A stretch of DNA of 64,000 bases from Escherichia coli. Lineage in GTDB: Bacteria; Pseudomonadota; Gammaproteobacteria; Enterobacterales; Enterobacteriaceae. The notes under the pieces are model-generated. The model saw only the letters and a program-made list of their open reading frames with translations, made no database searches and was not told the DNA's origin. Both the position numbers and the translations under genes were made by a program. Positions 50,421-63,156 of the stretch are shown in pieces. The stretch lies in assembly GCF_044324875.1 (NCBI RefSeq), contig NZ_CP172185.1. The stretch is one strand, 5' to 3'. Every line of letters starts with the position of its first letter. The first letter of the stretch is position 1.

Positions 50421-51089
50421 TCAGATAGGTTGAATTAACTCCGCGCCCTGGTTTTTAACATTACCCACCGCGCGCGATACCGGGTGCCAGGTGAACTGGT
50501 TTGCTGGCACACAGCCACTGGTAGCGATTTCTGAGGCTTCTTTACCGCCAATATCTTGCCGCATCCATTCCCGCGCAGCTTCTGGCGACAGTACCAGTGG
50601 GCGGCGGTCATGAATATCTACCAGACCCTGGTCTGCTGCTGCAGTGACAATCAAAAATCCTTCGGCTTCGTCACCGCGCTCGAACGGTGTGCTACCTATC
50701 GCGGCCATAAAAACAGGTTGTCCATCAGCACGATAGATAAAATAAGGCTGCTTTTTGTCGCCTTCTTTTTTCCACTCAAACCAGCCATCGGCAAAACAGA
50801 TTGCCCGACCATGTTGCCAGAGCGGTTTAAACATGCGACTGGTTGCGGCAGTTTCTACACGGGCGTTAATCAGCGGCGGTTTATCCCACCATCCGGGAGC
50901 ATATCCCCAGAAAACCGGATCCAAATGAAGGTGTTCATCACGTTCACTGAGCAGAAGGACTTTGGTTCCCGGCGCGACGTTGTATCTGCCAATGGGTTCT
51001 GTATCGTAGGGAATATCGCGTTCAATATCTTCCGCGAGAAGCGCAAGGTAATCTTCACGCGTTTGGGATTGGGCAAAGCGTCCACACAT
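50421..51089 (-). CDS. yedK: SOS-response-associated peptidase YedK (abasic-site processing protein)
   Basis: 222 aa beginning MCGRFAQ with catalytic Cys2; SRAP family. Confidence 0.9.
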   Translation of the reverse strand: MCGRFAQSQTREDYLALLAEDIERDIPYDTEPIGRYNVAPGTKVLLLSERDEHLHLDPVFWGYAPGWWDKPPLINARVETAATSRMFKPLWQHGRAICFADGWFEWKKEGDKKQPYFIYRADGQPVFMAAIGSTPFERGDEAEGFLIVTAAADQGLVDIHDRRPLVLSPEAAREWMRQDIGGKEASEIATSGCVPANQFTWHPVSRAVGNVKNQGAELIQPI

Positions 51090-51195
51090 AGCAACCTCCT
51101 GAGATCATACTGAAAAGAATAGGAGAGGGGGCGGGTAAAATCTATGTGTCAGAGGCAACGATGTTCCCGCTGTGGGCCACAGCGGGAATGAGGGA

Positions 51196-51426
51196 TTATT
51201 TCTGAATTAAATAACGAATGGTCGGCCCGTCTTGCTGAATATCCAGCACCGTATAGCCGTGATTACGCGCATCTAGTGGAATATTATTCGACTGCGGACA
51301 GTCGCTCACCACTTCCAGGATCTCACCTTTTTTTAATTGCGGCATCGCCTCAAGGGTTGCGACTGCCGGATAAGGGCAGGGTTCACCCACCATATCAAGG
51401 CGGTAATCAGGAACGATATTTTTCAT
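51196..51426 (-). CDS. yedF: TusA-like sulfurtransferase YedF
   Basis: 76 aa with conserved CPYP motif (GEPCPYPAVATLEAM). Confidence 0.9.
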   Translation of the reverse strand: MKNIVPDYRLDMVGEPCPYPAVATLEAMPQLKKGEILEVVSDCPQSNNIPLDARNHGYTVLDIQQDGPTIRYLIQK

Positions 51427-52628
51427 GCGATCTCCTTAGCAGTCTGCGGTGCCGCACGGCGGAAGAAGCGTTTTTCCCAGCCGATAATCAACATCAGCGC
51501 AGCAAACAGCAGCAAATATGTCACCAGCAGGCCACCCATCGGACCAAAGGTTTTCAGTAGGTTGATTTTGTCCCAGTCGGTGGCCAGCGCCGGAGCGAAA
51601 TCATCCCAGTAGTACGCCAGAATCGTCGAGCCGATCACGTTGCCCAGACCGACCCACCAGTAGTGCACCTGGCCTTCTACCGCGCGGTACATCCAGCCGG
51701 TTTCGCAGCCGCCAGCCAGCACGATGCCAAAACCAAACAGTAAACCACCAATTACCGCGTTTGGTCCCGCCCACATGATTTTGGGTTCAACGCCTAACTG
51801 TACGTAACTGAAGATCCCGATGGCACTCACCGCCATACCAATAATGATTGCTTTCGCCATATGGGTACGTCCGGTGATCCACATATCGCGGAACGCCGAA
51901 GTAAAGCAGATTTGCGCACGTTCAATCAGTAAACCAAAGCCGACGCCAAACAGCATTGCCAGCCCCAGTTTGGGTTGGTTCATCGCTGTGAGCAGCGCCC
52001 AGCCCAGCATGCCGAAAAAGACCAGCATCCCGAGACGAAAACGACGCCGCGCCTGATCCGGTTTTTGCGTCAGCGGTGAGGCGGCAGAAACTTTCTGCAT
52101 TTTCACGGGAATACGGAAGATGGGCAGCAGGGTAAAGCGCGCGCCAAACCATGAGCCAATGGCAGTGGCGATGGCAAAGAACCAGGCATGCAGCGAGAAC
52201 TGAGGAATGCCGGTAAAGAACGCCGCCAGGTTACAGCCCATTGCCAGACGCGCGCCAAAACCAGCGATAATGCCGCCAATAATGGCTTGCATAATGCGGA
52301 TACGGCTGCGTGGCATGCGTAGTTTGACATTGTTGGCCCACAGCGCTGCAGCAAAGCAGCCGCCAAACATACCGAGGATCATCATCCCGTCGATGCGGGT
52401 TAATGGCGATCCTTCCAGATGGATAATTTTAAAATAACCCCACTCTTCAGCATGGACGCCGAACAGCTGCAGGAGCTGACCGCCCCAACGGGTAAATTCA
52501 CCCGTGACAGCCCAAAAGGTGCCAGTGATGCCAAAATAGTAAGTGGAGAGAATACCCGCCGCGATGACCGCAGGGATGGGCGCCCAGAATTTAATCAACC
52601 AGGCGTGTTTGAATTGCTGCCATGACAT
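51423..52628 (-). CDS. yedE: YeeE/YedE-family membrane transporter (selenium/sulfur-related) YedE
   Basis: 401 aa polytopic membrane protein; overlaps the yedF start by 4 nt. Confidence 0.9.
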   Translation of the reverse strand: MSWQQFKHAWLIKFWAPIPAVIAAGILSTYYFGITGTFWAVTGEFTRWGGQLLQLFGVHAEEWGYFKIIHLEGSPLTRIDGMMILGMFGGCFAAALWANNVKLRMPRSRIRIMQAIIGGIIAGFGARLAMGCNLAAFFTGIPQFSLHAWFFAIATAIGSWFGARFTLLPIFRIPVKMQKVSAASPLTQKPDQARRRFRLGMLVFFGMLGWALLTAMNQPKLGLAMLFGVGFGLLIERAQICFTSAFRDMWITGRTHMAKAIIIGMAVSAIGIFSYVQLGVEPKIMWAGPNAVIGGLLFGFGIVLAGGCETGWMYRAVEGQVHYWWVGLGNVIGSTILAYYWDDFAPALATDWDKINLLKTFGPMGGLLVTYLLLFAALMLIIGWEKRFFRRAAPQTAKEIA

Positions 52629-52811
52629 GAATGTAGCCTCTGAACTCAGAAGGTTTGAAACAGGAGTCGCGAATCATACATCAAGCAAATTTATTTTCAG
52701 GGTAATAATTCACAAAAATAATAGTTAGATCAAATTTCTCTCTGAACCTGGAAAGGCTGGCGACATCAGGGCTTTAATGCCACAATCCTCTTTTCTTCTC
52801 ATGCAGGACGA

Positions 52812-53228
52812 ATGATGAAAAAACTCGCAATTGCAGGCGCGCTCATGTTGCTGGCGGGCTGTGCCGAAGTCGAAAACTATAACAATGTCGTGAAAACCCC
52901 CGCGCCGGACTGGCTGGCGGGCTACTGGCAGACCAAAGGGCCGCAACGTGCGCTGGTCAGTCCGGAAGCGATAGGCAGCCTGATTGTCACTAAAGAGGGC
53001 GATACCCTGGATTGCCGTCAGTGGCAGCGGGTGATTGCCGTGCCGGGTAAGTTGACATTGATGTCTGATGATCTCACTAACGTTACCGTAAAACGTGAGC
53101 TGTACGAGGTTGAGCGTGACGGTAACACCATTGAGTACGATGGTATGACGATGGAGCGTGTGGATCGCCCGACGGCAGAGTGTGCCGCCGCGCTGGATAA
53201 AGCGCCGTTACCGACGCCACTGCCGTAA
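52812..53228 (+). CDS. yedD: Lipoprotein YedD
   Basis: 138 aa; lipobox LAGCAE. Confidence 0.9.
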   Translation: MMKKLAIAGALMLLAGCAEVENYNNVVKTPAPDWLAGYWQTKGPQRALVSPEAIGSLIVTKEGDTLDCRQWQRVIAVPGKLTLMSDDLTNVTVKRELYEVERDGNTIEYDGMTMERVDRPTAECAAALDKAPLPTPLP

Positions 53229-53261
53229 TGAAATCTCCCCGGCTTGCCGCCGGGGATGAAT

Positions 53262-54749
53262 TTAAATCACCTCTTCGATAACCCACACGCTGACGCTGCC
53301 GCCGTTGCAAAAGAAGGTTGCTTCGCCGTTTTCGTCGGTCACTACGCTCTCTTGCCGGTTCCCCAGAAAATCACGCCAGGTTTTATTGCCGTAATTCTCT
53401 CCCAGATGAATGGTTTTTTCGCCATCATCCCCGTTCGACATGACCACCACGCAACCGGGATATTCGTCAGTGCCACTGCGGCTAAAGGCAATGCAGTTCG
53501 GATGGTCGAAAAATAACGTCTGTACACCGTGGGCGAAACGCTGACGGGCGAGAATTAACTCATCAAGCTGTTCGATTATTGGCATATCTATCGGATAGGT
53601 TTGCCCGTCACCGCCAACATCTTCGTAATGCGCGCCATAGAGGTCAGGATAGAACACCGAAGGAACGCCATTTTCCCGCAACAAAATTAGAGCATACGCC
53701 AGCGGTTTAAACCACGGTTCGACGGGGGCTTCGAGGGCTTGCAACGGTTGGGTGTCGTGGTTGGCAACGAGGGTTACGGCGTGAAAAGGATCGGCTTCCA
53801 CTAATGTACCCGTGAAAATCTGCGTCATGTCGTAGTCGCGCCCCATGCGCGATGCTTCATGGAATTTCATCTGCAGCGGTGCATCGAACAGCATGGTTTT
53901 GCCTTCCACCTGATCAATATACGTTTGCAGTTTATCGACTTCATGCGACCAGTACTCTGCCACAATAAACAGCGGCTTTGGCGCAACTTCCTGTACGTGT
54001 TCGATCCACTCTTTATAAAACCACGCCGGAATATGTTTGACCGCATCAAGACGAAAACCGTCGCACTGCGTTTGTTCCATCACCCAGCGCGCCCAGTATT
54101 TAATCTCTTCCGTCACGGCATGATTGCGGAAATCGATATTCTCGCCCATCAGATAATCGAAATTACCTAATTCATCATCAACCTGATCGTTCCAGCCTTC
54201 GCCGGTGTAGTCGTTAACAATTTTAAATATGCCATCTTCATCAGGGTTTTCGATATGGTCGATACCGCTAAAACATTTGAAATCCCAGATAAACTGTGAG
54301 TATTGCCCGGCACGGGCGGGGAAGGTGTAACGCGTCCAGCCTTCGCACTCAATGATTTCTTCATCAATTTGCGTACGGTCGTCAGCATTTACACGCTGCA
54401 CGCGAATAGCTTCTTTTTCATCCGCGCCCATTTTGTGGTTGACTACCACGTCCAACAGCACCGCAATGTCATTACGTTTCAGGGCGTCAATGGCGGCCAG
54501 CAGTTGTACTTTATCGCCATATTTAGTAGGGATGCTGCCTTTCTGATCAAACTCACCTAAATCAAATAAATCATAGGAGTCGTAGCCGACCGAATACCCG
54601 CCCGATGCGCCTTTATAGGCGGGCGGCAACCAGACCATATTGATACCAATATCATTAAAACCGTCGGCGCGCTCGGCCAGTTCAGGCCAGAGCTTACCGC
54701 CTTCCGGGTAATACCAGTGAAAACATTGTAACAGCGTGGGATTACGCAT
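53262..54749 (-). CDS. amyA: Cytoplasmic alpha-amylase AmyA
   Basis: 495 aa GH13 protein, no signal peptide. Confidence 0.95.
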
Positions 54750-54826
54750 TCTTCGACTCCATTCAAGGGGAACATTAGAAGCGTAGCCGTAATCGGATTA
54801 TTCGCGAGCCATCGACTCGTTCAGAT

Positions 54827-55192
54827 TCAAAAGAGGTTATCCTGCGGAGCCAGCACAAAGCCGCCCTGATCACCATAGGCACTTAACACCGATTTTTGCA
54901 CCGATGACTGACCGACCAGTTTCGCCAGTTCATCCATCCGAATCTGTAATAACTGCTTTACCTTGCTTTCGTTGTCGAGAATCAGGCGCAGCATCGGGCG
55001 GAGCTGCTCCTGCATCATGGTGGACGGGTCAACCTCTTCAGTCAGATGTGCAATCTCCTGCACCGCATTCACATACGCCATTTCGCTGGCGATGAGTTCG
55101 TCCCATTGTTCTTCCGTTGCCAGGCGTAACATGAGCTGGCTTTTTTCGACGAGTTGTTGCCAGGCGAAATACAAATGCGGTGCGTGGTTCAT
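54827..55192 (-). CDS. fliT: Flagellar chaperone / FlhDC antagonist FliT
   Basis: 121 aa; last gene of fliDST. Confidence 0.95.
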
Positions 55193-55602
55193 CAGACTGG
55201 GTCCTGAATCAAAGAAGGGGAGAGTAACGACTCTTTCCAGGCATCGGCAATATTACGCATTAATGCTTCCACTTCTTCGACTGCGGAGACATCGTTGCGT
55301 AAATTGGCTTGCAGCAAGCGCCTGACCATATAGCTATAAAGAGCAATCAAGTTTTGGGTTAATTCGTCTTTGCTCTCTTCATCAAGACTCACCCGCAGTC
55401 CGTTCTCAATGATGTTGATCGCTTTTGACAATGAGACGCCTTTGCCTTGCTGATTGTTGTCCTGCATAAACAGGCGCGCTCTAACCAGTGCGCTCAGCAC
55501 TCCATCAAATAGCATGGTGACCAGCTGCTGTTGACTGGCGCTCATTACGGCGCTTTCGACGCCAATTTGTGCATAGGCCTGGGTGCCTTTTGCCGCGTAC
55601 AT
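55192..55602 (-). CDS. fliS: Flagellin-specific chaperone FliS
   Basis: 136 aa. Confidence 0.95.
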
Positions 55603-55626
55603 GACCTGTCTCCCGATGAATAATGA

Positions 55627-57042
55627 TTACTTGGAATTACTGTTGTTTTCGAACTGCTGCGTTAAGTAGCTGCTGGTGCTGTTTAACGAGGTCATTAAAA
55701 CGTCCAGTTGGGTAAATTGTTCTTTGTAGCGCGCGACCTGCGCATCAATGCGATCGCTGGCGGCGTTGTAGTCTTTAGTTAACTTATTCAGGGTCTTACT
55801 AACGCCATCGGTAGCGGCTTTAATAATGCCCGTTGTCGAAAGCCAACTAGTCAGGTTGCTGCCGATGGTGGTCGTGATACCGGTTTTTTTACCATCGCCA
55901 ACAATCAATGCACCTACGCCGCTGGCATCTTTTTTCAGTGCAGCGGTGAGTTTGTCGGCATCCAGCTCCAGTTTGCCATCGCTGGGATCGGTCGTGATAC
56001 CAATCTGCGCCAACGTTTTATAGTTGGAAGAACTGACGGTATTACTCAGCATCGACTTCAACTGCGTCTGAATCGTCCGCAACGTGGAGTCGCCGAGCAG
56101 TGCGCCATTGCTAGAACTCTGGCTATCAGCCCCCGCATCTACGGCGGTGTATTTGGTCAGGCTGCTGAAGGTATCTATTAGCGAGTTATAGGCATTCACC
56201 CAGTCTTTAATCGCCGTTTGCGCTTTGGAGGTGTCCTGAGTGATGGTTAGCGTCTGGTTGCCCGTGGTGACATCGTTCAGGTTCAGGGTGATGTTTTCCA
56301 GCGCGTCGCTGATGGTGTTGCTGCTGTTCTCAATGGCGACGTTGTTGACCGTCAGTTGCGCATTCTGAGCGGCGACCGAGACCTCCATGCCGTTGCTGCT
56401 GGCACTGGCGTCATAGCCCATAAAACTTTGTAGCGCATCATCACCGCTAACCGAGAGCGTCATCGCATTGTCAAGGCCGGTGTCATTTGATGTGACTGAC
56501 AGACGATATTCACCGTTACCCACGTTAATGATGCTCGCGCTAACACCCGCTTTTGCGTTGTTGATGGCATCACGGATCCCGCTTAACGATGAGTTAGCCG
56601 CGCTGATATCAATGGTAATCGGCTCTTTGTCGCCGCCTTGTTGAAGGGTGAGTTTGCTGTCGCTGGTGGCGATCGCCGTTTTCGTATCATCTCTGGTGGT
56701 GCGCGTGGTCAGGGTTTGCGCCTGCGCCAGATGGGTGACGCTGATGGTGTATTTCCCGGCGATGGCGTTACCCGCGGTGGTGGCACTGAACGCGGTGGTG
56801 CTGCTGGTGGTGCTGGTGGTGCTGGTGGCGGAAAAAAGATCGGCTTTAGACAATGCAGTATTGGCGGTCTGGAAAGTCGTCAGCGCGCTTTTCAGCGTAC
56901 CGTAGGCGCTAAGTTTAGCGGTAAACGACGATTGCTGATTTGAAATAGGGGTTAGCGTCGCTTTTTGCGCGGCGGTGAGGCTATCAAGGATTGAACTTAA
57001 ATCCAGGCCTGACCCGACTCCCAGCGATGAAATACTTGCCAT
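55627..57042 (-). CDS. fliD: Flagellar filament cap protein FliD
   Basis: 471 aa, Thr/Ser-rich cap protein; divergent from fliC. Confidence 0.95.
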   Translation of the reverse strand: MASISSLGVGSGLDLSSILDSLTAAQKATLTPISNQQSSFTAKLSAYGTLKSALTTFQTANTALSKADLFSATSTTSTTSSTTAFSATTAGNAIAGKYTISVTHLAQAQTLTTRTTRDDTKTAIATSDSKLTLQQGGDKEPITIDISAANSSLSGIRDAINNAKAGVSASIINVGNGEYRLSVTSNDTGLDNAMTLSVSGDDALQSFMGYDASASSNGMEVSVAAQNAQLTVNNVAIENSSNTISDALENITLNLNDVTTGNQTLTITQDTSKAQTAIKDWVNAYNSLIDTFSSLTKYTAVDAGADSQSSSNGALLGDSTLRTIQTQLKSMLSNTVSSSNYKTLAQIGITTDPSDGKLELDADKLTAALKKDASGVGALIVGDGKKTGITTTIGSNLTSWLSTTGIIKAATDGVSKTLNKLTKDYNAASDRIDAQVARYKEQFTQLDVLMTSLNSTSSYLTQQFENNSNSK

Positions 57043-57204
57043 GCGATTTCCTTTTATCTTTCGACACGTAAAACGAATACCGGGGTTATCGGCCTGAATT
57101 GCGCAAAGTTTACGTTTAATTGTTTTTTTTAATAGCGGGAATAAGGGGTAGAGAAAAGAGTATTTCGGCGACTAACAAAAAATGGCTGTTTGTGAAAAAA
57201 ATTC

Positions 57205-57231
57205 TAAAGGTTGTTTTACGACAGACGATAA
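57205..57231 (+). promoter_or_regulatory. Sigma-28 (FliA) class 3 promoter of fliC
   Basis: TAAA at 57205-57208, 15-nt spacer, GACGATAA at 57224-57231, close to the TAAA-N15-GCCGATAA consensus; about 75 nt upstream of the fliC ATG. Confidence 0.7.
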
Positions 57232-57307
57232 CAGGGTTGACGGCGATTGAGCCGACGGGTGGAAACCCAATACGTAATCAACGACTTGCAATATAGGATA
57301 ACGAATC

Positions 57308-59014
57308 ATGGCACAAGTCATTAATACCAACAGCCTCTCGCTGATCACTCAAAATAATATCAACAAGAACCAGTCTGCGCTGTCGAGTTCTATCGAGCGT
57401 CTGTCTTCTGGCTTGCGTATTAACAGCGCGAAGGATGACGCCGCGGGTCAGGCGATTGCTAACCGTTTTACTTCTAACATTAAAGGCCTGACTCAGGCTG
57501 CACGTAACGCCAACGACGGTATTTCTGTTGCACAGACCACCGAAGGCGCGCTGTCCGAAATCAACAACAACTTACAGCGTATTCGTGAACTGACGGTTCA
57601 GGCCACTACCGGTACTAACTCTGATTCGGATCTGGACTCCATCCAGGACGAAATCAAATCTCGTCTGGACGAAATTGACCGCGTATCCGGTCAGACCCAG
57701 TTCAACGGTGTGAACGTACTGGCGAAAGACGGTTCGATGAAAATTCAGGTTGGTGCGAACGACGGCCAGACTATCACGATTGATCTGAAGAAAATTGACT
57801 CAGATACGCTGGGTTTGAATGGTTTTAACGTTAATGGCAAAGGTACTATTGCGAACAAAGCTGCTACAGTCAGCGATCTGACCGCTGCTGGTGCAACGGG
57901 AACAGGTCCTTATGCTGTGACCACAAACAATACAGCTCTCAGCGCTAGCGATGCACTGTCTCGCCTGAAAACCGGAGATACAGTTACTACTACTGGCTCG
58001 AGTGCTGCGACCTATACTTATGATGCGGCTAAAGGGAACTTCACCACTCAAGCAACAGTTGCAGATGGCGATGTTGTTAACTTTGCAAATACTCTGAAAC
58101 CAGCGGCTGGCACTACTGCATCAGGTGTTTATACTCGTAGTACTGGTGATGTGAAGTTTGATGTAGATGCTAATGGCGATGTGACCATCGGTGGTAAAGC
58201 CGCGTACCTGGACGCCACTGGTAACCTATCTACAAACAACGCCGGCATTGCATCTTCAGCAAAATTGTCCGATCTGTTTGCTAGCGGTAGTTCTTTAGCG
58301 ACAACTGGTTCTATCCAGCTGTCTGGCACAACTTATAACTTTGGTGCAGCGGCAACTTCTGGCGTAACCTACACCAAAACGGTAAGCGCTGATACTGTAC
58401 TGAGCACAGTACAGAGTGCTGCAACGGCTAACACAGCAGTTACTGGTGCGACAATTAAGTATAATACAGGTATTCAGTCTGCAACTGCGTCCTTCGGTGG
58501 TGCTAATACTAATGGTGCTGGTAATTCGAATGACACCTATACTGATGCAGACAAAGAGCTTACCACAACCGCATCTTACACTATCAACTACAACGTCGAT
58601 AAGGATACCGGTACAGTAACTGTAGCTTCAAATGGCGCAGGTGCAACTGGTAAATTTGCAGCTACTGTTGGCGCACAGGCTTATGTTAACTCTACAGGCA
58701 AACTGACCACTGAAACCACCAGTGCAGGCACTGCAACCAAAGATCCTCTGTCTGCCCTGGATGAAGCAATCAGCTCCATCGACAAATTCCGTTCATCCTT
58801 GGGTGCTATCCAGAACCGTCTGGATTCCGCGGTCACCAACCTGAACAACACCACTACCAACCTGTCCGAAGCGCAGTCCCGTATTCAGGACGCCGACTAT
58901 GCGACCGAAGTGTCCAACATGTCGAAAGCGCAGATCATCCAGCAGGCCGGTAACTCCGTGCTGGCAAAAGCTAACCAGGTACCGCAGCAGGTTCTGTCTC
59001 TGCTGCAGGGTTAA
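57308..59014 (+). CDS. fliC: Flagellin FliC (H antigen), 568 aa
   Basis: Conserved N-terminus MAQVINTNSLSLITQNNINKNQSALSSSIERLSSGLRINSAKDDAAGQAIANRF and C-terminus ...VPQQVLSLLQG with a long Thr/Ala/Gly-rich variable centre. Confidence 0.97.
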   Translation: MAQVINTNSLSLITQNNINKNQSALSSSIERLSSGLRINSAKDDAAGQAIANRFTSNIKGLTQAARNANDGISVAQTTEGALSEINNNLQRIRELTVQATTGTNSDSDLDSIQDEIKSRLDEIDRVSGQTQFNGVNVLAKDGSMKIQVGANDGQTITIDLKKIDSDTLGLNGFNVNGKGTIANKAATVSDLTAAGATGTGPYAVTTNNTALSASDALSRLKTGDTVTTTGSSAATYTYDAAKGNFTTQATVADGDVVNFANTLKPAAGTTASGVYTRSTGDVKFDVDANGDVTIGGKAAYLDATGNLSTNNAGIASSAKLSDLFASGSSLATTGSIQLSGTTYNFGAAATSGVTYTKTVSADTVLSTVQSAATANTAVTGATIKYNTGIQSATASFGGANTNGAGNSNDTYTDADKELTTTASYTINYNVDKDTGTVTVASNGAGATGKFAATVGAQAYVNSTGKLTTETTSAGTATKDPLSALDEAISSIDKFRSSLGAIQNRLDSAVTNLNNTTTNLSEAQSRIQDADYATEVSNMSKAQIIQQAGNSVLAKANQVPQQVLSLLQG

Positions 59015-59020
59015 TCGCCT

Positions 59021-59047
59021 GAATGCCTCTCAAACCCCGCTCCGGCG
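59021..59047 (+). terminator. Rho-independent terminator of fliC
   Basis: Hairpin CCCCGCTCCGGCGGGG followed by TTTTTT. Confidence 0.75.
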
Positions 59048-59177
59048 GGGTTTTTTACAATTGGCTTTTTGCGTAACCCCCAAATAACCCCTCATTTCAC
59101 CCACTAATCGTCCGATTAAAAACCCTGCAGAAACGGATAATCATGCCGATAACTCATATAACGCAGGGCTGTTTATC

Positions 59178-59897
59178 GTGAATTCACTCTATACCGCTGA
59201 AGGTGTAATGGATAAACACTCGCTGTGGCAGCGTTATGTCCCGCTGGTGCGTCACGAAGCATTGCGCCTGCAGGTTCGACTGCCCGCGAGCGTGGAACTT
59301 GACGATCTGCTACAGGCGGGCGGCATTGGGTTACTCAATGCCGTCGAACGCTATGACGCCCTACAAGGAACGGCATTTACAACTTACGCAGTGCAGCGTA
59401 TCCGTGGCGCTATGCTGGATGAACTTCGCAGCCGTGACTGGGTGCCGCGCAGCGTGCGACGCAACGCGCGTGAAGTGGCACAGGCAATAGGGCAACTGGA
59501 GCAGGAACTTGGCCGCAACGCCACGGAAACTGAGGTTGCGGAACGTTTAGGGATCGATATTGCCGATTATCGTCAAATGCTGCTCGACACCAATAACAGC
59601 CAGCTCTTCTCCTACGATGAGTGGCGCGAAGAGCACGGCGATAGCATCGAACTGGTTACTGATGATCATCAGCGAGAAAACCCGCTACAACAACTGCTGG
59701 ACAGTAATCTGCGCCAGCGGGTGATGGAAGCTATCGAAACGTTGCCGGAGCGCGAAAAACTGGTATTAACCCTCTATTACCAGGAAGAGCTGAATCTCAA
59801 AGAGATTGGCGCGGTGCTGGAGGTCGGGGAATCGCGGGTCAGTCAGTTACACAGCCAGGCCATTAAACGGTTACGCACTAAACTGGGTAAGTTATAA
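59178..59897 (+). CDS. fliA: Flagellar sigma factor sigma-28 FliA
   Basis: 239 aa; sigma-70 regions 2 and 4. Confidence 0.97.
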   Translation: MNSLYTAEGVMDKHSLWQRYVPLVRHEALRLQVRLPASVELDDLLQAGGIGLLNAVERYDALQGTAFTTYAVQRIRGAMLDELRSRDWVPRSVRRNAREVAQAIGQLEQELGRNATETEVAERLGIDIADYRQMLLDTNNSQLFSYDEWREEHGDSIELVTDDHQRENPLQQLLDSNLRQRVMEAIETLPEREKLVLTLYYQEELNLKEIGAVLEVGESRVSQLHSQAIKRLRTKLGKL

Positions 59898-59942
59898 CGT
59901 CAGTAAATGCCGCACTTTAATTTTGACTACCAGGAGTTCTTA

Positions 59943-60494
59943 ATGATGGTGCAGCACCTGAAAAGACGGCCATTAAGCCGCTATCTTAAAGACTTTAAAC
60001 ACAGCCAGACCCATTGCGCGCATTGCCGTAAATTACTCGATCGCATTACCCTCGTTCGCGACGGCAAAATAGTGAATAAAATCGAGATTTCCCGCCTGGA
60101 CATGCTGCTTGATGAAAATGGCTGGCAAGTGGAACAAAAATCATGGGCGGCATTGTGCCGATTTTGCGGTGATTTACATTGCAAAACGCAGAGTGATTTT
60201 TTCGATATTATCGGCTTTAAGCAATTTCTTTTTGAGCAAACTGAAATGAGCCCAGGTACGGTGCGTGAATATGTCGTTCGTCTGCGCCGTTTGGGTAATC
60301 ATCTACACGAGCAAAATATTTCCCTCGATCAGCTGCAGGACGGTTTCCTTGATGAAATCCTCGCCCCGTGGCTGCCCACCACCAGCACCAACAATTACCG
60401 CATTGCGTTACGGAAGTATCAACACTATCAGCGTCAAACGTGTACCGGACTTGTGCAGAAATCCTCCAGCCTGCCTGCTTCTGATATATATTAA
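59943..60494 (+). CDS. fliZ: Regulator FliZ
   Basis: 183 aa starting MMVQHLKRRPLSRYLKDF... Confidence 0.9.
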   Translation: MMVQHLKRRPLSRYLKDFKHSQTHCAHCRKLLDRITLVRDGKIVNKIEISRLDMLLDENGWQVEQKSWAALCRFCGDLHCKTQSDFFDIIGFKQFLFEQTEMSPGTVREYVVRLRRLGNHLHEQNISLDQLQDGFLDEILAPWLPTTSTNNYRIALRKYQHYQRQTCTGLVQKSSSLPASDIY

Positions 60495-60581
60495 ATAAGA
60501 ATAAGATGTAGCGGAGTTGTTTTTGTGTTTACAAACAATGGCTCTACACTGCAAACAGACATAACAACATTCGGGGTGAAT

Positions 60582-62473
<1,892 letters not shown>

Positions 62474-62487
62474 CTCCGGAAACGCTC

Positions 62488-63156
62488 ATGCAAGAAAGTA
62501 TACAACTGGTTATTGATTCCTTGCCGTTCCTGCTGAAAGGGGCTGGGTATACGCTGCAACTCAGTATCGGCGGCATGTTTTTTGGCTTACTGCTAGGGTT
62601 TATTCTCGCGCTGATGCGCCTTTCGCCAATCTGGCCCGTGCGCTGGCTGGCGCGTTTTTATATCTCTATTTTTCGTGGTACGCCACTCATCGCACAACTG
62701 TTTATGATCTATTACGGCCTGCCGCAGTTTGGCATCGAACTAGATCCCATTCCGTCAGCAATGATTGGTCTGTCGCTAAACACTGCCGCCTATGCTGCCG
62801 AAACGCTGCGCGCCGCCATTTCTTCTATTGATAAAGGTCAGTGGGAAGCTGCTGCCAGTATTGGTATGACGCCGTGGCAGACCATGCGTCGCGCGATTTT
62901 GCCACAGGCGGCGCGGGTGGCGTTGCCGCCGCTGTCGAACAGCTTTATCAGCCTGGTAAAAGATACGTCGCTGGCCGCGACAATCCAGGTGCCGGAGCTG
63001 TTCCGTCAGGCGCAGTTGATTACCTCACGCACGCTGGAAGTGTTCACCATGTACCTGGCGGCTTCGCTCATCTACTGGATCATGGCGACAGTGTTATCGA
63101 CGTTGCAGAACCATTTTGAGAATCAACTTAATCGCCAGGAGAGAGAACCAAAATGA
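62488..63156 (+). CDS. tcyL: Cystine ABC transporter permease TcyL (YecS)
   Basis: 222 aa polar-amino-acid ABC permease. Confidence 0.9.
   Translation: MQESIQLVIDSLPFLLKGAGYTLQLSIGGMFFGLLLGFILALMRLSPIWPVRWLARFYISIFRGTPLIAQLFMIYYGLPQFGIELDPIPSAMIGLSLNTAAYAAETLRAAISSIDKGQWEAAASIGMTPWQTMRRAILPQAARVALPPLSNSFISLVKDTSLAATIQVPELFRQAQLITSRTLEVFTMYLAASLIYWIMATVLSTLQNHFENQLNRQEREPK

Follow-up and report, generated by a model that had tools for sequence, protein, structure and literature searches.

The window that we analysed, a 64,000-nt stretch of Escherichia coli chromosome, carries at 57308..59014 on the plus strand an ATG-started open reading frame (ORF) of 568 codons followed by a stop codon, which corresponds to an intact fliC gene of 1,707 bp. 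The gene sits in the normal fliC position, with fliD on one side and fliA on the other. To its left the minus strand encodes fliD, fliS, fliT and amyA, and to its right the plus strand encodes fliA, fliZ, tcyJ and dcyD. This order, with a divergent fliDST cluster, then fliC and then fliAZ, was common to the annotated loci of strains KE55, MIN10, IAI39 and K-12. The encoded protein, which contains no cysteine, tryptophan or histidine among its 568 residues, matched the Pfam models Flagellin_N (PF00669; residues 5-140, E = 1.6e-46, 158 bits) and Flagellin_C (PF00700; residues 482-566, E = 1.5e-31, 109 bits), and between them the enterobacterial FliC middle-domain model (residues 326-472). A helical Flagellin_N and a helical Flagellin_C domain, one at each end of a single polypeptide, are what places a protein in the FliC/FljB family, and the NCBIfam model for this family (PRK08026, 'FliC/FljB family flagellin') covered residues 1-568 and scored 813.6 bits, the cut-off being 619. 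Searching the 64-kb window with the FliC protein (tblastn) returned this single copy and no second flagellin gene. The ORF is a real, ordinary chromosomal E. coli flagellin gene and no chance pattern.

To delimit the parts of the protein, we aligned it to a further seven E. coli flagellins, 498-595 amino acids in length and of differing types. Across these eight flagellins, residues 1-175 and 477-568 were near invariant, while residues 176-476, roughly 300 positions, were variable and interrupted by many insertions and deletions (Table 1). Threonine, alanine and glycine together make up 49% of the variable block (60 Thr, 53 Ala and 35 Gly of 301 residues) compared with 23% of the ends. The earlier note had read the gene, from its letters, as a fliC with conserved termini, and the ORF, the Pfam and NCBIfam matches and the eight-flagellin alignment all bear this out; its Thr/Ala/Gly-rich variable domain was likewise right in composition, but not in size, which comes to about 300 rather than roughly 350 residues. 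By homology and textbook knowledge, the two ends would form the coiled-coil D0/D1 core that polymerises into the filament, and the central 300 or so residues would fold into outer domains exposed at the surface of the filament. H-antigen specificity would be expected to reside in this middle part because the outer domains sit on that surface. The D0/D1 core of flagellin also bears the site recognised by TLR5.

Table 1. Features of the fliC locus and of the resistance gene insertion in the window (window positions)
Feature	Position	Strand	Basis or remark
ISEcp1-blaCTX-M-1 transposition unit, 3,003 bp	45291-48293		left inverted repeat starts at 45291
Sigma-28 (FliA) class-3 promoter, predicted	57205..57231	+	match to the pattern TAAAGGTT-N11-GACGATAA
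Conserved N-terminal part of FliC, residues 1-175	57308..57832	+	eight-flagellin alignment; D0/D1 filament core by homology
Variable central part of FliC, residues 176-476	57833..58735	+	alignment with indels; predicted surface-exposed outer domains, H-antigen specificity
H45 amplicon, 139 bp	58039..58177	+	in-silico PCR
H45-F primer site	58039-58057		0 mismatches
H45 probe target	58108-58140		0 mismatches
H45-R primer site	58157-58177		0 mismatches
Conserved C-terminal part of FliC, residues 477-568	58736..59011	+	eight-flagellin alignment; D1/D0
Intrinsic terminator of fliC	59032..59056	+	terminator scan; 9-bp stem, 4-nt loop, U run

The closest solved structure was that of the O157:H7 flagellar filament (cryo-EM, PDB 7SN4), to which the full-length protein aligned with E = 2e-201. 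H7 flagellin is of a different H type and, at 585 amino acids, differs by several central insertions and deletions, yet its conserved parts were almost the same as those of the window protein, with 174 of 175 residues identical in the N-terminal part (99.4%) and 88 of 92 in the C-terminal part (95.7%). In the central part identity fell to 46.7% over the aligned positions; the two are nevertheless homologous there, and the same outer-domain architecture is therefore expected. An AlphaFold model of the window protein, built from the eight-sequence alignment, was poor (mean pLDDT 60.5, pTM 0.36), and a Foldseek search with this low-confidence model ranked 7SN4 first at a TM score of about 0.36-0.42, which added nothing beyond the sequence alignment.

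The spacer between fliD and fliC was near identical to that of K-12 MG1655, with few positions differing. It contains upstream of fliC the predicted sigma-28 promoter listed in Table 1, whose TAAAGGTT-N11-GACGATAA element is established as the fliC promoter in K-12, as well as a second sigma-28 element on the opposite strand, for fliD (57112-57086). A scan for sigma-70 sites found no more of them than in shuffled sequence. Downstream of the gene, the terminator hairpin folded at -17.1 kcal/mol (z = -3.2), and none of 200 shuffled sequences did as well; a search of the surroundings of fliC against Rfam gave nothing above noise, the only matches being sub-threshold ones on this hairpin. Transcription of fliC would, from what textbooks say of such promoters, start at the predicted FliA-dependent class-3 promoter, and the transcript would probably end at the intrinsic terminator, about 20 nt past the stop codon. 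Judging from homology and textbook knowledge, the strain would be expected to express H45 flagella, the H type being derived below.

The spacer that follows fliC (59015-59177) also differs from that of K-12. It measures 163 nt as compared to 320 nt and is devoid of a REP-containing stretch of about 156 nt, which in K-12 makes up most of the annotated small RNA FliX; only about 20 nt and the hairpin of the terminator remain, giving a fliC 3'UTR of roughly 45 nt. In K-12, FliX and its shorter form FliX-S lower the expression of flagellin and of flagellar genes. FliX-S, the active shorter form, contains one of the REP sequences of this stretch (PMC10578931). The short form of the spacer was shared by KE55, IAI39 and the assemblies L004-L006, and the long form was found in MIN10 (which is also H45), 042 and K-12; the exact 78-mer of the short form occurred in 200 of 5,426 complete genomes. 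It is conceivable, though we consider it improbable, that the lineage regulates flagellar synthesis in a manner unlike K-12 and represents a natural FliX-less variant comprising a few percent of E. coli.

To assign the H type, the comparison proposed by the earlier note, that of the central residues with E. coli fliC alleles, was carried out with residues 151-470 (961 nt, window positions 57758-58718) as the query and 5,426 complete E. coli genomes as the target. Full-length matches to the central region were found in 85 genomes, none of them below 95% identity (3 at 99% or above, 82 at 95-99%); among the matches listed, three were at 99.6% and the others at 97.9-98.4%. Outside this group, the listed matches, which were spread over the whole ranking, were confined to query positions 1-131 or less, that is, to the last stretch of the conserved N-terminal part. 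The ranking breaks sharply below these 85 genomes, which marks the central region as one of a discrete group of alleles, and strains labelled or serotyped as H45 are among the carriers. The RefSeq record 'Escherichia coli O126:H45 strain MIN10' is a member, its central region matching at 98.0% identity and 100% coverage, and so is TW11681 (97.9% in the central region), the serotype of which is O19:H45 (PMC6630672).

An independent set of sequences, 53 published pairs of H-type primers (PMC11529414 Table S8-5), was applied to the whole window by in-silico PCR. The H45 pair was the only one of the panel to match exactly, as did the target of the H45 probe, whereas the other 52 pairs, those for H1, H12 and H7 among them, gave no match in the window. 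The sole other pair within three mismatches per primer was that for H56, which falls in the conserved N-terminal part and has three and two mismatches. The same in-silico PCR outcome was obtained with KE55, MIN10 and IAI39. On the strength of these matches, the predicted H genotype of the window fliC is H45, a call based on strains with an H45 label or serotype and on the published H45 oligonucleotides. The default thresholds of SerotypeFinder are 85% identity and 60% length. The H45 type strain is 4106-54, with fliC accession AY250023.1 (PMC4753304).

How does the window allele relate to those already in public collections? Compared with the H45 alleles of MIN10, TW11681, IAI39 and CE10, it occupies the same locus, has the same length (1,707 bp, 568 amino acids) and carries the same primer and probe sites; whole-gene identity was 97.7-98.7%, with 2-5 amino acid differences, the nucleotide divergence of about 2% being mostly synonymous. 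Over the whole gene, it was separated from the MIN10 allele by 37 nt and 5 amino acids (97.8% identity; 3 amino acids in the variable part), from that of IAI39 by 39 nt and 4 amino acids (variable part 1, S329T) and from that of KE55 (L001) by 25 nt and 2 amino acids (variable part 0). The window protein has T100 and S482 in its conserved ends, and S329 in the variable part where both IAI39 and MIN10 have threonine. The closest non-H45 alleles that we aligned, the 595-residue flagellins of ATCC 43896 and JSWP006, were 75% identical overall and clearly homologous in the central part, but 27 residues longer and different by many central substitutions; 595 amino acids is the length of H1/H12 flagellins.

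The exact protein was found on 161 contigs of a public protein collection, with NCBI accessions, and the 90% cluster to which it belongs counts 297 members, some of them from Shigella boydii, S. dysenteriae and S. flexneri. The Shigella members are in line with the H45 genotype that has been reported for S. flexneri 6 (PMC11529414 supplement). At the nucleotide level, identical fliC genes were present in two public assemblies, L004 (GCA_044682625.1) and L006 (GCA_021148225.1), while none of the 5,426 complete RefSeq genomes carried the exact allele, the best reaching 98.7%. The allele and its H45 type are already known from public genomes, and the finding is correct and useful but not novel.

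The differences from KE55, which has the nearest allele among the complete genomes, were unevenly placed along the gene. All 25 of them fell in the conserved ends, at gene positions 135-501 and 1444-1665, and there were zero in the central 942 nt (gene positions 502-1443), an outcome with a chance of about 2e-9 if differences were evenly spread. This distribution points to putative recombination breakpoints within the two conserved ends of the gene. Mosaic fliC genes, the ends and the middle of which have separate recombination histories, are familiar.

Over a larger scale, no complete RefSeq genome was closer than about 98.7% to the 25 kb at window positions 39001-64000. The draft assembly L004, in contrast, represents almost the same clone as the window but is devoid of the bla insertion; over 15.7 kb the two differed only by one SNP (63204), a 3-bp indel at 51287 and a 9-bp repeat in fliD. 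The latter gene (55627-57042, minus strand) encodes 471 amino acids in the window as compared to the usual 468, because the 9-bp unit CCACCAGCA (coding strand; around 56802-56828) occurs in three copies rather than two. The extra copy adds Thr-Ser-Thr within a Ser/Thr-rich stretch, and fliD is otherwise the same as in L004.

The insertion that sets the window apart from L004 is an ISEcp1-blaCTX-M-1 unit. The start of blaCTX-M was located at 47027, its 291-residue product fits the model of the CTX-M family, and many plasmids carry ISEcp1-blaCTX-M-1 units that match the region from about 45291 to 48294 at 100% identity and whose gene is annotated as CTX-M-1. The unit is chromosomal, lies 66-70 bp downstream of fliE and is flanked by a 5-bp target duplication, TCTAT, which can be read directly at 45286-45290 and 48294-48298. 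L004 provides the corresponding empty site: its sequence, 99.9% identical on both sides, aligns to window positions 44294-45290 and 48294-64000, and the two alignments have 5 bases in common. A literature search linking chromosomal CTX-M-1, ISEcp1 and H45 gave no match that identifies the lineage. The two typing elements that the earlier note had paired, an H type to be read from the central region and a chromosomal CTX-M-1 marker, both hold up, the former as H45 through the genome matches together with the primers and probe, and the latter through the start site, the family model, the identity to plasmid units and the L004 empty site.

A genotype might not be displayed, and we therefore considered whether the strain could be H45 by genotype only, being either non-motile or in possession of another flagellin of the flkA, fllA, flmA or flnA type; serology would in that case give NM or another H type. 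The H45 allele is indeed interrupted by IS2 in three complete E. coli genomes (G1/2, G6/7 and G8), and must therefore be inactivated sometimes in nature, and the 64 kb do not extend to flhDC, to the motility and chemotaxis genes or to the remainder of the chromosome, where any alternative flagellin locus would lie. Within the window nothing points in this direction: fliC is intact and has its promoter and terminator, the ORFs of fliA, fliZ, fliD, fliS and fliT are full-length, those from fliF to fliR are of the expected length (the identity of fliF being supported by an NCBIfam match), the window holds a single flagellin, and the ISEcp1 unit, being downstream of fliE, interrupts no flagellar gene. 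We consider non-display unlikely. We consider it very improbable that the allele represents an H type of its own, or a subtype set apart by serology, with no more than a likeness to H45. In favour of this reading, the window allele and its three nearest relatives among complete genomes, KE55, AST215 and GMF065, form a sub-group whose central region is about 2% off that of the main H45 alleles, and H1 and H12 are separate types at a similar gap, being 97.5% identical (PMC4753304). Against it, these 2% are nearly all synonymous and leave the variable part 0 to 3 amino acids from KE55, IAI39 and MIN10, the published H45 primers and probe show no mismatch, and no other H type came near this central region among the 5,426 genomes. 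Taken jointly, the observations are, with high confidence, best explained by a chromosomal fliC that encodes the flagellin of the flagellar filament and is an allele of the H45 type.

For flagellin biology as such, this chromosomal H45 fliC adds nothing new. For the strain, the H45 genotype is a routine typing handle, and, in combination with the mapped chromosomal ISEcp1-blaCTX-M-1 insertion, the H45 fliC provides a clone-specific pair of markers.
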